Shown: piece after piece, positions 15,119 to 30,521 of the stretch
Position numbering within the stretch: the first letter of the stretch is position 1
How the letters are laid out: every line of letters begins with the position of its first letter
Origin: Candidatus Borrarchaeum weybense
GTDB lineage: Archaea > Asgardarchaeota > Sifarchaeia > Borrarchaeales > Borrarchaeaceae
Assembly (NCBI GenBank): GCA_019057385.1
Contig: JAHQJS010000008.1
Coordinates: 1 to 64,000, forward strand
DNA length: 64,000 nt
Direction: 5' to 3'
Made by a program: the position numbers and the translations under genes
The notes under the pieces: model-generated
Database searches by the model: none
What the model was told of the DNA's origin: nothing
What the model saw: only the letters and a program-made list of their open reading frames with translations

Positions 15119-15165
15119 GCCAAGTACAGTTAAAAGCCTCACTGCTTTAGCGTGAGGTAGTTTAA
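15119..15165 (+). mobile_element. IS200/IS605 right end (same family as the 29.5 kb element)
   Basis: CCAAGTACAGTTAAAAGCCTCACTGCTTTAGCGTGAGGTAGTTTA differs from 29468-29512 at only two positions. Confidence 0.85.
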
Positions 15166-18139: not shown

Positions 18140-18518
18140 CCCCAAGGAAATTCCTTCCCTTAAGGGTGGAGAGGAAGTGAGATCGGACTCTGCTTACACC
18201 CCCCCCTTTCTGTGAGGCGCAGGGGATAGTTTACCCAACCTCGCTCGGGTGGTGTTTTAATGACGGGTACTCGCAAGTCCTGTCGCTCCCAACACCAGGG
18301 AGTAAGTCCACTTCGAGATTGTTGTAAAGGCTTTTTACATCAGCAGCATCGTTCCTACCCCTCAGAACTTTTAACCACCGACGACAGACCAGGGGGCTAG
18401 TGGAACACCCCAGGGTGTCGTGGCCTAAACAGCTGCTGCATCTCACTGAGAGATGCCCTCTAATCAACTAAGAGACTTGCATGAACAAGTCCCTACCCTT
18501 TAGGGTGGGGTAGTTGGC
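18140..18518 (-). mobile_element. Non-autonomous IscB/IsrB-type element (both ends kept, nuclease ORF deleted)
   Basis: End hairpins CCCCACCCTAAAGGGTAGGG and CTCCACCCTTAAGGGAAGGAA; residual TTG-start MRVPVI at 18276; residual tail HFLSTLKGRNFLGVFL* in another frame. Confidence 0.82.
18280..18518 (-). ncRNA. HEARO / IscB omegaRNA scaffold
   Basis: GCCAACTACCCC..CTAAAG..ACTTG..CAAG..GTTGATTAG, ACACCCTGGGGTGTTCCACTAGCCCC, TTAAAAGTTCTGAGGGGTAGGAAC, ACAATCTCGAAGTGGA match the HEARO pattern as I recall it. Confidence 0.85.
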
Positions 18519-26635: not shown

Positions 26636-29140
26636 ATGAGCCACCAAGATGAACCTTCTGTAGCAGATGAATGCAAAGATGAAAATACATCCTGCGCTTG
26701 CAATGATACAGCGTGCAATGATTCCCATAATCATGTAAATGACGATTCCTGTTGTGAACACGACCATGAGCACGAGCATGAACATGATCACGAACACGAA
26801 GTTGACGACGAAGAACAATTTGAAGAGTTGTTCGGGACATCAGGCACGAAGAAATTGACGTTCCATCTCGGCGGAATGGATTGTGCCAATTGCGCGTTAT
26901 CTTTGCAGAAGGCATTAGATAACGTTGATGGCGTGAAAAAGGCAACGGTGAGTTTTGGTCCAAGGATAACAAATCTCTTTTTCGATGGAGAAAAAGAAAC
27001 CTTCGAACGTGTTGAAAAGACAATCCGCTCGTTAGGGTTCGAACTCGAAGGCGAACGAGTGATACTCAATTTGGAATCCTTGACCTCAAAATCGCTTGGA
27101 AAGAAGTTAGAACAAGAATTAGGCAGTGTTAGAGGCATTCTCTATGCAGCTGTTTCATTTGACAAAAGCACACTGAATCTCATCTATAACCCATCAGAAA
27201 TTAATCTGCCGAAAATTAAGTCAGAAATCCAAAAATTAGGCGTGACTATCGCTGGCGAGAAAAAAACTGCAAAGATTTCTAAACAAAAAATAAAATTGCT
27301 TCAGACCGCCGCTGCCGGAGCACTTTTCGCGTTAGGTTGGGCAACAAGATGGCTTTTTAATACATATGGGGTCTCTTCTTTATTCTTGCCTTCAGTAATA
27401 TTTCTATTATCTGCAGTAGTTATTGGAGGCTATTCCACTGTACTCAAAGCTTTTTACTCACTTCGGTCGAAAGTCCTAGATGTTAACACTTTGGTAGCTG
27501 TAGCATTTACTGGTGCGATTATAATCAGGGAATATTGGGAAGCTAGTGCAGTTGTTTTTCTCTTCTTGTTTGGTTCATTGCTTGAGAGTTATTCTATGGA
27601 AAAAACAAGAAATGCCATCCGCGAATTAATTGACCTCAAACCAAAGGTCGCTAGGGTACGTAGATATGATACAGAGGTCGAAGTTTTCGCAGATGAGGTA
27701 AAAAAAGGAGAACTTGTTATTGTAAAGGCTGGAGAAAAAATCCCTGTTGATGGTAAGGTTATTAAGGGCTCTACTGCTGTTAATCAATCCTCTGTTACTG
27801 GTGAATCTCTCCCAATTGAAAAAACGGTAGGCGATGAGGTTTTTAGCGGAACTATCAATATTGATGGCTATATTGAGGTGGAAACAACAAAGACAGGCGA
27901 AGATACAACACTAAGTAAAATTGTCAAAATGGTTGAGCAAGCACAAACTGAGAAATCCCCAATTCAAACATTTGCGGAAAAATTTGACAAATATTACGTG
28001 CCTGCTGTGCTTTTAGTTGCTTTGGCTAATTTTTTAATCACGCAAAACCTTCTTATTACACTCACCTTGTTAGTCGTTGCGTGCCCATGTGCCCTCGTTA
28101 TCTCCACACCCGTTGCTATTGTAAGTGGGATTGGCAATGCTGCAAGAAAAGGAGTTCTAATCAAGGGTGGCCGTTCTTTAGAAGCACTAGGTAAGTTAGA
28201 TGCTGTTGCATTCGATAAAACAGGCACTATTACCCTAGGAAAAATTAAGGTATTTGAAGTCGAAAACTTCTATGACGATGTCTCCATAAAAGATATCTTA
28301 TATTGGGCGGGTATAGGCGAGAAGATGGCAGAACATCAAATTGGTAAAGCTATTGTGGAGTATGTCAGATCAGAAAATATTACTATCCCAGATCCAGACA
28401 AATTGTCTGTAGTTAGTGGTATCGGGATTAGTGCTGAATACAAAGGTAGAAAAGTAATAATGGGTAAGCGAAAACTTCTTGAAAATAATGGATTAATTGT
28501 TACAAGAAACGTTGAAAATTATCTTGAAAAGGCTGAGAGTAAAGGATACACCGTTATTCCTATTGCCGTAGATGACCGCATTATTGGTGCTATTTCTGTT
28601 GCAGATTTATTGAAACCTGAAGCGCCAGAGGCACTTAGCAAACTAAAGAAAGTAGGTATCAAACAAATCTTAATGCTTACAGGCGACAATGAAAGAACTG
28701 CAGAAACAATCGCAAAGTGTATGGAAGTTGACAATTTTAAGGCTAACCTACTTCCTGAGGATAAGGTTTCATATGTGAAACAACTCCATGAAGAAGGTCG
28801 TGTAGTTGGAATGATTGGTGACGGAATTAATGATGCCCCTGCCCTTGCGGCAGCTGATATAGGTATTGCAATGGGTGTTGCGGGTACAGACGTAGCAATT
28901 GAAACCGCAGATATTGCTTTAATGTCCGATGACGTTTCTAAAGTGCCCTATGCCATAGGATTAAGCAAAAAAACCAATGCGATTATCCGCCAAAATATCG
29001 TATTCGCCCTAGTCATGGTCTTTGCCTTGCTAATAGCTACACTCTTCGGTGTGCTTGAATTAGCGAGTGGTATTCTTGGACATGAGGCAAGTGCGCTTCT
29101 TGTTATCCTAAATGGGATGCGTTTATTACGATACAAATGA
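26636..29140 (+). CDS. Heavy-metal P1B-type ATPase (ZntA/CadA-like)
   Basis: Cys/His-rich N-terminus, GMDCANC HMA, TGES, CPC, DKTGT, GDGINDAPAL, HEASA. Confidence 0.95.
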   Translation: MSHQDEPSVADECKDENTSCACNDTACNDSHNHVNDDSCCEHDHEHEHEHDHEHEVDDEEQFEELFGTSGTKKLTFHLGGMDCANCALSLQKALDNVDGVKKATVSFGPRITNLFFDGEKETFERVEKTIRSLGFELEGERVILNLESLTSKSLGKKLEQELGSVRGILYAAVSFDKSTLNLIYNPSEINLPKIKSEIQKLGVTIAGEKKTAKISKQKIKLLQTAAAGALFALGWATRWLFNTYGVSSLFLPSVIFLLSAVVIGGYSTVLKAFYSLRSKVLDVNTLVAVAFTGAIIIREYWEASAVVFLFLFGSLLESYSMEKTRNAIRELIDLKPKVARVRRYDTEVEVFADEVKKGELVIVKAGEKIPVDGKVIKGSTAVNQSSVTGESLPIEKTVGDEVFSGTINIDGYIEVETTKTGEDTTLSKIVKMVEQAQTEKSPIQTFAEKFDKYYVPAVLLVALANFLITQNLLITLTLLVVACPCALVISTPVAIVSGIGNAARKGVLIKGGRSLEALGKLDAVAFDKTGTITLGKIKVFEVENFYDDVSIKDILYWAGIGEKMAEHQIGKAIVEYVRSENITIPDPDKLSVVSGIGISAEYKGRKVIMGKRKLLENNGLIVTRNVENYLEKAESKGYTVIPIAVDDRIIGAISVADLLKPEAPEALSKLKKVGIKQILMLTGDNERTAETIAKCMEVDNFKANLLPEDKVSYVKQLHEEGRVVGMIGDGINDAPALAAADIGIAMGVAGTDVAIETADIALMSDDVSKVPYAIGLSKKTNAIIRQNIVFALVMVFALLIATLFGVLELASGILGHEASALLVILNGMRLLRYK

Positions 29141-29179
29141 TTTTTCTTTAACCAATATATCTTTCAAAACTTCACTGAT

Positions 29180-29513
29180 CCCTCTCAAGGAAGCCCCTGC
29201 CCTTTAGGGTGGGGAGGAATTGAGGGTGTGTTTCACTTGTACAAGGGTCTCTCCACTTTTAAATATATGTTCTGGGATAGAGGTACGTGGTCTCAAGGCA
29301 CACCTCTCGTAGAAGTGGAAACGGTTAATGACCTCAAGGGTGATGAGCATTAAACTAGTATAGCCCGACTCTAGATGAGGATTACTGGGCTGGGGTCTAG
29401 TAAACGCCCCCATGATTTAGCGTGTGATGAAGTTGAAACTCTAGCTGGTGTAGTTAGAGGACTGAGACCAAGTACAGCTAAAAGCCTCACTGCTTTAGCA
29501 TGAGGTAGTTTAC
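29180..29513 (+). mobile_element. Non-autonomous IS200/IS605 mini-element with an internal structured RNA
   Basis: Left end CTCAAGGAAGCCCCTGCCCTTTAGGGTGGGGAGGAATTGAG; right end AAAGCCTCACTGCTTTAGCATGAGGTAGTTTAC; no credible ORF. Confidence 0.85.
29283..29513 (+). ncRNA. Candidate TnpB-type omegaRNA/reRNA scaffold
   Basis: TATA-like TTTAAATATA at 29258; closing stem GTACGTGGTCTCA/TGAGACCAAGTAC; hairpins AGCCC..GGGCT, GGGG..CCCC and CTCTAGCT..AGTTAGAG. Confidence 0.6.
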
Positions 29514-29520
29514 ACTATCA

Positions 29521-29560
29521 CCTCAAGGATGCTCCCCTGTTTTCGGGGGGAGAGTGATGT
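29521..29560 (+). mobile_element. Second left-end-like hairpin directly after the mini-element
   Basis: CTCAAGGATGCTCCCCTGTTTTCGGGGGGAGAG resembles 29183-29222. Confidence 0.5.
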
Positions 29561-29768: not shown

Positions 29769-30521
29769 TTGAATATAGAAGCATTGGGTCTTGCTGTACT
29801 TGCTACTTTTATTGTAAGTGCAGCCGCATTTATTGGAGTCTTATTCATTTCACTTAAAGAAGAAACACTCAATAAATTTTTGCTTGCGCTTGTAGCTTTA
29901 TCGTCGGGAGTACTATTCGGCGGCGCATTTTTACACCTCTTGCCAGAAGCCTTGGAATCAGTAGGTGAAGAAATAATTCCAACGTCGATTGCACTTCTTT
30001 CTGCTATCGTATTATTTTTTATTTTAGAGAAGTTTTTATCCTGGCGGCACTGCCACAAGGGTGTATGTGATATTCATGCCTTTACATACATGAATTTGAT
30101 TGGAGATGGAATCCACAATTTTATTGATGGACTAGTCATCATAGCTGCATTCCTTATGAGCACTCCTCTTGGATTCATAGTGACGGTTGCTATTCTCTTT
30201 CATGAAATCCCGCAAGAAGTAGCTGATTTTTCAGTACTTGTTTATGGTGGGTTTACAAAAACAAAAGCGCTATTTTTTAATTTCTTATCAGCAATATTAG
30301 CTATAGCAGGAGCAATTGTGGGTTTTCTCATTTCTTCCAGCATACAGCAATTTACGACGTTTCTCTTACCTTTTGCTGCAGGAGGCTTTATCTATATTGC
30401 GGGATCAGACCTTATTCCAGAACTGCGTAGCAAAACAGAACTTTCAAGCGCGGTTATTCAGACAAGCATGATAATATTGGGAATTTTCCTAATGTGGTTT
30501 CTCCTTATCGTCTTCGAATAA
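29769..30521 (+). CDS. ZIP family metal transporter
   Basis: HLLPEA, WRHCH, GDGIHNFIDG, HEIPQE, SDLIPEL. Confidence 0.95.
   Translation: MNIEALGLAVLATFIVSAAAFIGVLFISLKEETLNKFLLALVALSSGVLFGGAFLHLLPEALESVGEEIIPTSIALLSAIVLFFILEKFLSWRHCHKGVCDIHAFTYMNLIGDGIHNFIDGLVIIAAFLMSTPLGFIVTVAILFHEIPQEVADFSVLVYGGFTKTKALFFNFLSAILAIAGAIVGFLISSSIQQFTTFLLPFAAGGFIYIAGSDLIPELRSKTELSSAVIQTSMIILGIFLMWFLLIVFE

Follow-up and report, generated by a model that had tools for sequence, protein, structure and literature searches.

Positions 29176–29513 of a 64,000-nucleotide stretch of the Asgard archaeon Candidatus Borrarchaeum weybense (contig JAHQJS010000008.1; the whole stretch is referred to here as the window) are one complete non-autonomous element of the IS200/IS605 group of insertion sequences (IS), 338 bp long and protein-less, of the kind known as a palindrome-associated transposable element (PATE). 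Very probably, this PATE arose from an element carrying only tnpB, by internal deletions that kept the promoter, the leader, the omegaRNA module and the right end. Its 3′ module is, judged from sequence, an ordinary TnpB guide-RNA (omegaRNA) scaffold of ~150 nt from which the tnpB gene has been deleted, and not a distinct class of RNA. A first-pass annotation, made from the DNA letters without database searches, had pointed to a structured omegaRNA gene with a promoter-like TATA box in a protein-less unit inside intact IS605-type ends. To that extent it is borne out: the sequence features that it listed are all present where it placed them, and the RNA has no counterpart in Rfam.

Boundaries, target site and copy family

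Searches of the window's own genome (G000) returned the whole unit twice more, along with a full-length 1.3-kb relative and fragments, and about 20 further full-length copies, 82–94% identical, were found when 40 related genomes were searched, all of them confined to four other genomes of the same genus. In all, the family numbers 23 copies with unrelated flanking sequences and is spread over five genomes of a single genus, among them that of the Asgard archaeon Ca. Borrarchaeum yapensis. The first-pass annotation had suggested looking across Asgard genomes for copies attached to a protein; such searches did yield the 23 miniature copies (minis) as well as full-length relatives with tnpB, but the minis themselves are protein-less. 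No open reading frame (ORF) is conserved among the copies, the longest open frames differing from copy to copy, and an element of 338 bp has no room for a transposase. Because flanks are unrelated and termini are shared in the alignment of the 23 copies, the limits of the element can be placed exactly at 29176 and 29513, and its target identified as (T)TCAC. The parts of the element and its flanks are as follows.

29171–29175, plus strand: target or transposon-adjacent motif TTCAC, in the host flank outside the element
29176–29257, plus strand: left end, a compound hairpin, with its boundary set by the 23 copies
29258–29265, plus strand: TATA box TTTAAATA, once the promoter of tnpB, hardly varying among the 23 minis and at the same place in full-length elements
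29285–29358, plus strand: mini-specific leader, with a remnant of the tnpB start region (29303–29317), an internal tnpB piece (29315–29334) and one arm (29283–29295) of the closing helix discussed below
29360–29502, plus strand: remnant of the last 48 tnpB codons, recognised by its translation against the C-terminus of full-length TnpB, with an in-frame TAG at 29372–29374
29364–29389, plus strand: stem H1 (29364–29366 with 29387–29389, 29369–29371 with 29377–29379)
29392–29411, plus strand: stem H2 (29392–29395 with 29408–29411), with loop GUAAAC (29400–29405) as the 5′ half of a pseudoknot
29418–29480, plus strand: stem H3 (29418–29429 with 29469–29480) enclosing stem-loop H4 (29439–29445 with 29453–29459)
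29484–29506, plus strand: right-end hairpin, also the last omegaRNA stem, from covariation, with loop UUUA at 29494–29497 (−20 to −17)
29508–29513, plus strand: GUUUAC, 3′ half of the pseudoknot and also the transposon end motif (TTTAC), a perfect complement of 29400–29405
29514–29529, plus strand: predicted 16-nt guide ACTATCACCTCAAGGA, placed by position only according to the TnpB rule (PMC10097598, PMC10055086)
29514–29560, plus strand: solo left end, now decayed, from a different IS200/IS605 family, with 18 nt ahead of its hairpin CTCCCCTG-TTTT-CGGGGGGAG

In the aligned copies the left flank closes with TCAC in about 20 of 23, and left flanks are otherwise unrelated. The element starts with TGATCCC(C/T)CTCAAGG and terminates, in nearly all copies, with GTAGTTTAC, its end motif TTTAC being one base removed from the target TTCAC. 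In 19 of the 23 copies the sequences on the two sides are unrelated to each other, and no target-site duplication is seen. Both ends bear subterminal palindromes, kept in the 23 copies, and inverted terminal repeats are absent. These are the defining properties of PATEs (PMC3119063).

The left-end hairpin has an outer stem (29181–29188 with 29220–29226) and an inner stem (29194–29202 with 29207–29214, loop TTTA), the former covarying among IS families (CCTCAA/TTGAGG against CGCCTCT/AGAGGCG). Hairpins of this left-end type occur at 17 places across the genome, and several of these stand alone or form tandem or nested arrays. The right-end stem covaries as well, CCUCAC.../...GUGAGG being replaced by CUCCAUCC/GGGUGGGG in Hod/H2M relatives. 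Immediately 5′ of this stem lies AAAG (29480–29483), and the terminal TTAC is at 29510–29513. The pairing of these two tetranucleotides had been noted as that of IS608 TnpA; both are present in the window copy, but the combination is not a rule of the family, CAAG being commoner than AAAG beside the right-end stem and found in most copies.

The locus lies between genes for a P-type ATPase (26636–29140, plus strand) and a ZIP-family transporter (29769–30521, plus strand). The same insertion is found in genome G004, in the same flanking context. The orthologous spacer of genome G003 is without ~430 nt that include the element, at a site so diverged that the exact joint is unreadable. No joints skipping the element were seen in DNA sequencing runs, which yielded no exact empty site.

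The ends of some other copies are rearranged. Two sister copies in the window's genome carry a copy of their right flank where the left end should begin: L002 (G000:C4:1213850–1214260) has 11 of 11 bases (GCATTTCCCTT) after both TTCAC and TTTAC, and L003 (G000:C7:356080–356520) has an imperfect direct repeat of ~45 nt in place of the whole left hairpin. The window copy, unlike these, has a normal consensus left end. A similar scar marks the genome's single element with both tnpA and tnpB (L030 1387–1396 and 3166–3175; G000:C7:194107 and 195886), where ATAGACTTGG stands just ahead of the left hairpin and again directly past the right end (…GGGGTAGTTCAC followed at once by ATAGACTTGG), and the left junction is without TCAC. 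In a sister genome, two minis (L034 and L044; G001:C134:257–592 and 1146–1479) lie in the same orientation, ~550 nt apart on one contig.

Descent from a tnpB-only element

Comparison with full-length relatives indicates that the mini is an internal-deletion derivative of a 1.3-kb tnpB-only (IS1341-type) element. From the left end through the TATA box, and again over the last ~155 nt, it matches the full-length element at C7:821405–822700 of the window's genome; the 3′ part that was kept comprises 48 tnpB codons plus the right end, and its translation reads IARL*MRITGLG...ACDEVETL...STAKSLTALA*. The first-pass annotation had held that its proposal would fall if the region were only a decayed 3′ coding fragment of tnpB without covariation or transcription. 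A tnpB 3′ coding fragment is indeed what is found there, but covariation is present, as described below.

The full-length element at C7:821405–822700 encodes a 383-codon TnpB broken by one TAA. This gene (C7:821421–822566, minus strand; L004/L056) is the only full-length cognate tnpB in the window's genome. Its lone TAA takes the place of a conserved Tyr near codon 52 (…LQPRC*YEVKARFGLQ…), and the rest shares 93% identity with an intact copy in G004. Intact cognate tnpB genes are present in genomes G004, G001 and G025 and also in more distant Asgard genomes, the intact 383-aa relatives matching Pfam OrfB_IS605 and Cas12f1-like_TNB.

The 93 nt at 29266–29358 are specific to the mini lineage of the window. 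They include a 20-nt internal tnpB piece (29315–29334) that matches all full-length tnpB copies at a single internal position, with 94–95% identity. Since the leader holds both a start-region remnant and this internal 20-mer, more than one internal deletion made the mini. Two further minis are independent, L051 (genome G003) having a single deletion after codon 24 and L046 (genome G035) measuring 233 bp, with its TATA box ~25 nt ahead of stem H1. Neither has the leader, and all three deletion derivatives (window type, L051 and L046) retain the stretch from H1 to the end. In Haloquadratum, PATEs derive from IS605-type elements by deletion of the core and some keep a C-terminal tnpB segment (PMC3119063); PATEs often encode omegaRNAs, which are used in trans (PMC10055086), and TnpB is known from Asgard archaea (PMC10691335).

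Fold of the 3′ module

For the last 170 nt, 22 minis were aligned with 17 relatives (16 elements of full-length type and one independent mini, L051). The consensus fold was obtained with RNAalifold, and the controls were 500 shuffles and the sliding of pairing partners. Four stems of the 3′ module are supported by covariation. Over 32 pairs, the paired share of cells is 97.4%, compared with 91.2% in shuffles (0/500 as high), and 63 cells carry double changes against 22.9 in shuffles (0/500), with double changes at eight pairs; the covariation score is 0.270 against 0.162 in shuffles (0/500). When partners are slid by 1–3 columns, pairing falls to 38–49%.

The evidence is spread over the individual stems. 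The inner H1 pair 29370:29378 is U-A in every mini (22 sequences) and G-C in the full-length elements, which give 15 distinct rows, a double change from CGC/GCG to CUC/GAG in the minis that keeps the pairing. The minis are without coding constraint, having a stop codon and no conserved ORF, yet the pairing of H1 is preserved. In H2, 19 rows have C-G and 12 have G-C at 29395:29408; compensatory changes are seen at four pairs of H4 and at two of the right-end hairpin. H3 is 97.7% paired, with seven pairs that vary one-sidedly (G-U/G-C/A-U).

The pseudoknot joins positions −6 to −1 with −114 to −109. Both hexamers, GUAAAC and GUUUAC, are invariant in the 39 sequences, and they co-vary in distant homologs, to GUAAAU/AUUUAC in a Nanohalobium element (L086) and GUAACA/UGUUAC in a Woesearchaeota element (L088), the ends of these two elements being placed by analogy, on sequence alone. 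A perfect 6-nt upstream complement was found for 0/46 right ends ending GTTCAC or GCTCAC, from other IS605 subfamilies of the genome, whose scaffolds differ and whose pseudoknots may be shorter. In Rfam, no match was returned at the gathering threshold or at E values up to 10, nor was the gathering threshold reached by the curated guide-RNA families (sotRNA RF02656/7, HEARO RF02033).

A working model for such an element is as follows. A Y1 transposase (TnpA) acting in trans would excise the element as single-stranded DNA and paste it 3′ of TCAC. The TATA box would drive a ~230-nt transcript through the right end and into the flank, of which the next ~16 nt would be the guide. Cognate TnpB, provided in trans by a full-length sister element, could then, once the element has been excised, be guided by the RNA to cleave the empty site (TTCAC plus flank), and recombination following that cut would restore the element.

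Promoter and leader

The sequence TTTAAATATA occupies 29258–29267, and its core TTTAAATA is nearly invariant in the 23 copies; transcription is predicted to start near 29285–29290. The leader that follows is absent from the parent IS, being built from the old start region and the 20-nt internal tnpB piece. At the lineage level its block 29289–29335 is conserved to the same degree as stem H1 and less than the right end. The leader has no stable fold of its own (z +1.1). It holds a 10-of-11 copy of the conserved GAAGUUGAAAC motif of the scaffold. We think it unlikely that the segment ~29289–29335 is a functional 5′ addition to the guide RNA, serving for example stability, processing or protein binding, in which case the lineage would be an evolved stand-alone guide-RNA gene and not a passive product of deletion.

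The likeness lies between GAAGTGGAAAC at 29312–29322 of the leader and the conserved single-stranded GAAGTTGAAAC (29429–29439) of the scaffold, and at 10/11 it is possibly due to chance (~0.1 by a rough count across all positions). Two other candidates in the leader were rejected. One was a small protein in a 28-codon frame (29267–29353), for which the start is absent, or early stops or frameshifts occur, in several copies; the core of the frame is open in all copies merely through low DNA variation, and the changes seen are non-synonymous. The other was a long-range pairing of the leader with the right-end hairpin, proposed by RNAalifold, in columns that are all invariant and with an ordinary duplex energy (fraction 0.33).

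Guide and 3′ flank

The flank at 29514–29560 had been described as left-end-like, and it is: 18 nt are followed by a hairpin, and the register is that of a true left end, resembling left ends found after TTCAT such as that at C6:820073. This solo left end is in the G004 ortholog and missing from the G003 ortholog. The further suggestion, that the guide could target related IS ends, is not supported, as the flank appears to be a chance insertion site. The genome holds no good target for the guide elsewhere, every other 16-nt match having 2–3 mismatches. In the matches to left ends, most mismatches fall within the four bases nearest the target motif, and the motif that precedes these matches is mostly TCAT, not TCAC; the one other perfect 12-nt match does not follow TCAC. 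In 19 of the 23 copies the flank is not left-end-like. The simplest reading is that the mini landed on a TTCAC that already preceded an older left end, such reuse of TTCAC being possible because the target motif survives IS605 insertion intact. A run of TTTT at 29540–29543, 27–30 nt past the end of the element, lies in the loop of the solo left-end hairpin. As pure inference, it could end an archaeal transcript and set the length of the guide.

Present state of the copy and alternative readings

On our reading, the family is, or recently was, active in the genus. For the window copy itself, several observations weigh against a working guide-RNA element and against the strength of the structural case. 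One intact tnpA is present in the genome (C7:194221–194586); it belongs to the only tnpA-bearing element there, whose ends differ from those of the minis and resemble them only in part. The window's genome has no intact cognate TnpB, the gene at C7:821421–822566 being interrupted by its one TAA. The window copy is 93.8% identical to its G004 ortholog, against 95.7–97.1% for spacers and 96.8–97.2% for neighbouring genes. Its right-end stem has a C.A mismatch at 29500, where most environmental contigs read G, and stem-breaking changes are present in one or other of the window and G004 orthologs. The copies of one family are kin, so that the shuffle controls overstate significance. The whole 251-nt stretch folds no better than shuffles (z −0.64; 47/200 as good), and the earlier description of the entire ~230-nt region as highly structured is not confirmed, a modest stability signal being seen in the 3′ 155 nt alone (z ~ −1.9 against mononucleotide shuffles). 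RNA-library data amount to two short contigs from sister copies in one sediment metatranscriptome, for which DNA carry-over is possible. One of these begins upstream of the TATA box and the other extends 62 nt past the right end; they are compatible with a guide-bearing precursor and equally with DNA carry-over. That metatranscriptome contains no RNA contig from the window locus itself. The window copy is probably a decaying orphan, because the sole cognate tnpB has a premature stop and the copy diverges at least as fast as its neutral flanks.

A rival reading is that the window copy, and perhaps every copy in the genome, is a silent relic, untranscribed or unused, with a fold simply inherited from the parent. 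We regard this as possible, though we lean against it. The broken cognate tnpB, a divergence from the G004 ortholog that outpaces the flanks and includes stem-breaking changes, and the lack of an RNA contig from the locus all speak for it; on the other side, the TATA box and scaffold of the window copy stay near the family consensus, the family is numerous with intact TnpB genes in sister species, and one RNA-library contig runs through the right end of a sister copy and continues into the flank. The hairpins might instead serve single-stranded DNA transposition, through TnpA recognition or folding of the excised circle, and not an RNA. Single-stranded ends in folded form are indeed what TnpA acts on (PMC10055086). 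The right-end hairpin certainly doubles as a DNA signal, and DNA and RNA are indistinguishable by covariation. In IS608, the TnpA signals lie within end regions of roughly 50 nt. Stems H1–H4, however, lie 35–150 nt inside the element, past end regions of ~50 nt, and H3 is rich in G-U pairs, which pair in RNA and on the plus strand only. Moreover, the solved ISDra2 omegaRNA has the same set of stems, guide-adjacent pseudoknot and UUUA loop (−20 to −17) (PMC10097598), and a purely DNA role is very unlikely. Even less can be said for exaptation as a promoter or regulatory RNA of the downstream ZIP-family transporter gene (29769–30521), which we consider extremely improbable: the element is oriented toward the gene, has a TATA box and is common to G004, but other copies sit in unrelated contexts, the G003 ortholog is without the element, and purifying selection on the window copy was not seen.

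The first-pass annotation itself favoured a new class of omegaRNA, ~230 nt long, closed by a 13-bp helix and with a guide aimed at the left ends of related IS. Part of its basis is sound. The inverted repeat is real, GTACGTGGTCTCA at 29283–29295 being complementary in 12/13 positions to TGAGACCAAGTAC at 29463–29475; the helix appears in the family consensus and in the single-sequence minimum-energy fold of 29285–29513, and the duplex of leader and module is marginally above shuffles (fraction 0.04). No Rfam family matches, and the flank is left-end-like. Comparative support for the helix is nevertheless lacking. Across the 23 copies 79.6% of its cells are paired against 79.8% in shuffles (385/500 as high), with a covariation score of 0.067 against 0.071, and six of the 13 pairs depart by unpaired cells only. 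Several copies share substitutions that remain uncompensated, namely C to A at 29286 and at 29294, G to T/A at 29466 and T to C at 29473. The 3′ arm (29463–29475) overlaps the supported stem H3, where the same variation keeps pairing; for example, wherever 29473 is C, 29424 is G. The 3′ end of tnpB forms the body of the RNA and is homologous to that of full-length relatives in the genome and genus, and the architecture of the RNA is ISDra2-like; two independent minis are without the leader. Next to TCAC the genome offers the guide no other good match, and the flanks of 19/23 copies are not left-end-like. A distinct class, already largely refuted by these data, is highly improbable.

Other IS605-type features of the genome and window

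The window's genome contains 58 right-end hairpins of the type AAGCCTCAnnGCTTTAGCnnGAGGTAG(T/C)T(C/T)AC, which belong to at least five subfamilies with differing upstream scaffolds (examples are C6:549226–549573, C8:156654–156685 and C8:162135–162325). A single genome is host to many TnpB/omegaRNA lineages with one shared end design. Within the window, 15120–15165 is a solo right-end fragment of the same family as the element described here, 96% identical over 45 nt and ending GTAGTTTAA instead of TTTAC. On the minus strand, 18302–18518 is a full-length match to Rfam HEARO (the IscB omegaRNA) at 104.7 bits, with an IS605-type hairpin at 18146–18176, ~130 nt away.

Discussion

We have documented active or recently active TnpB/omegaRNA transposons in a genus of Asgard archaea, Borrarchaeum, with their boundaries, copy family, parent and fold. 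Apart from the ends, the protein-less derivatives in this genus keep only a promoter and a guide-RNA gene, which supports a modular, trans-acting view of TnpA, TnpB and omegaRNA. The element type was already known and no new mechanism is revealed, but the work supplies a defined archaeal omegaRNA scaffold (~150 nt, target motif TTCAC) for a 383-aa TnpB, itself a candidate compact nuclease.

The general design of the ends is that of IS608 of Helicobacter pylori. Both have asymmetric ends with hairpins, a left cleavage site 18–19 nt 5′ of the left hairpin and a right site 7–10 nt 3′ of the right hairpin, and both have a tetranucleotide (AAAG in the window copy) immediately 5′ of the right stem together with a terminal TTAC. 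In IS608 the guide tetranucleotide AAAG goes with terminal TTAC. The mini differs in that most copies have CAAG, so that the first guide position does not track the end motif, and in having no tnpA.

The closest parallels to the element as a whole are the PATEs of Haloquadratum walsbyi, such as HqIRS71 (PMC3119063), and, in Geobacillus stearothermophilus, PATE-like elements encoding omegaRNAs (PMC10055086). Like these, it is protein-less, with subterminal palindromes, no inverted terminal repeats, no target duplication and a target of 4–5 nt; it too derives from an IS605-type element by deletion of the core with a C-terminal tnpB segment kept, and it would likewise rely on TnpA and TnpB in trans. 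Unlike them, it resides in an Asgard archaeon and has kept its own promoter, together with a conserved, lineage-specific 5′ leader built from pieces of the parent.

For the RNA, the best point of reference is the ISDra2 TnpB complex of Deinococcus radiodurans, in which cryo-electron microscopy (cryo-EM) revealed a scaffold of four stems whose UUUA tetraloop occupies −20 to −17 and in which −5 to −3 and −103 to −105 form a pseudoknot (PMC10097598). Both RNAs are specified by tnpB 3′ sequence together with the right end, with the guide following the last base of the element, and in both there are several stems and the bases 5′ of the guide pair with a loop ~105–114 nt upstream; the UUUA loop occupies exactly the same place, −20 to −17. 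There is, however, no detectable sequence similarity, the scaffold is ~150 nt here and 116 nt in ISDra2, the pseudoknot here is a perfect 6-bp duplex, and the target motif is TTCAC where that of ISDra2 is TTGAT. The gene stands alone here, without tnpB, and its RNA is predicted from sequence. A comparable origin applies to the sotRNAs of Halobacterium salinarum (Rfam RF02656/RF02657), archaeal IS1341 omegaRNAs that also come from the 3′ end of tnpB and overlap it in sense (PMC12558985), although the best Rfam score obtained here was 9.5 bits against a gathering score of 88 and was located on the left-end hairpin.

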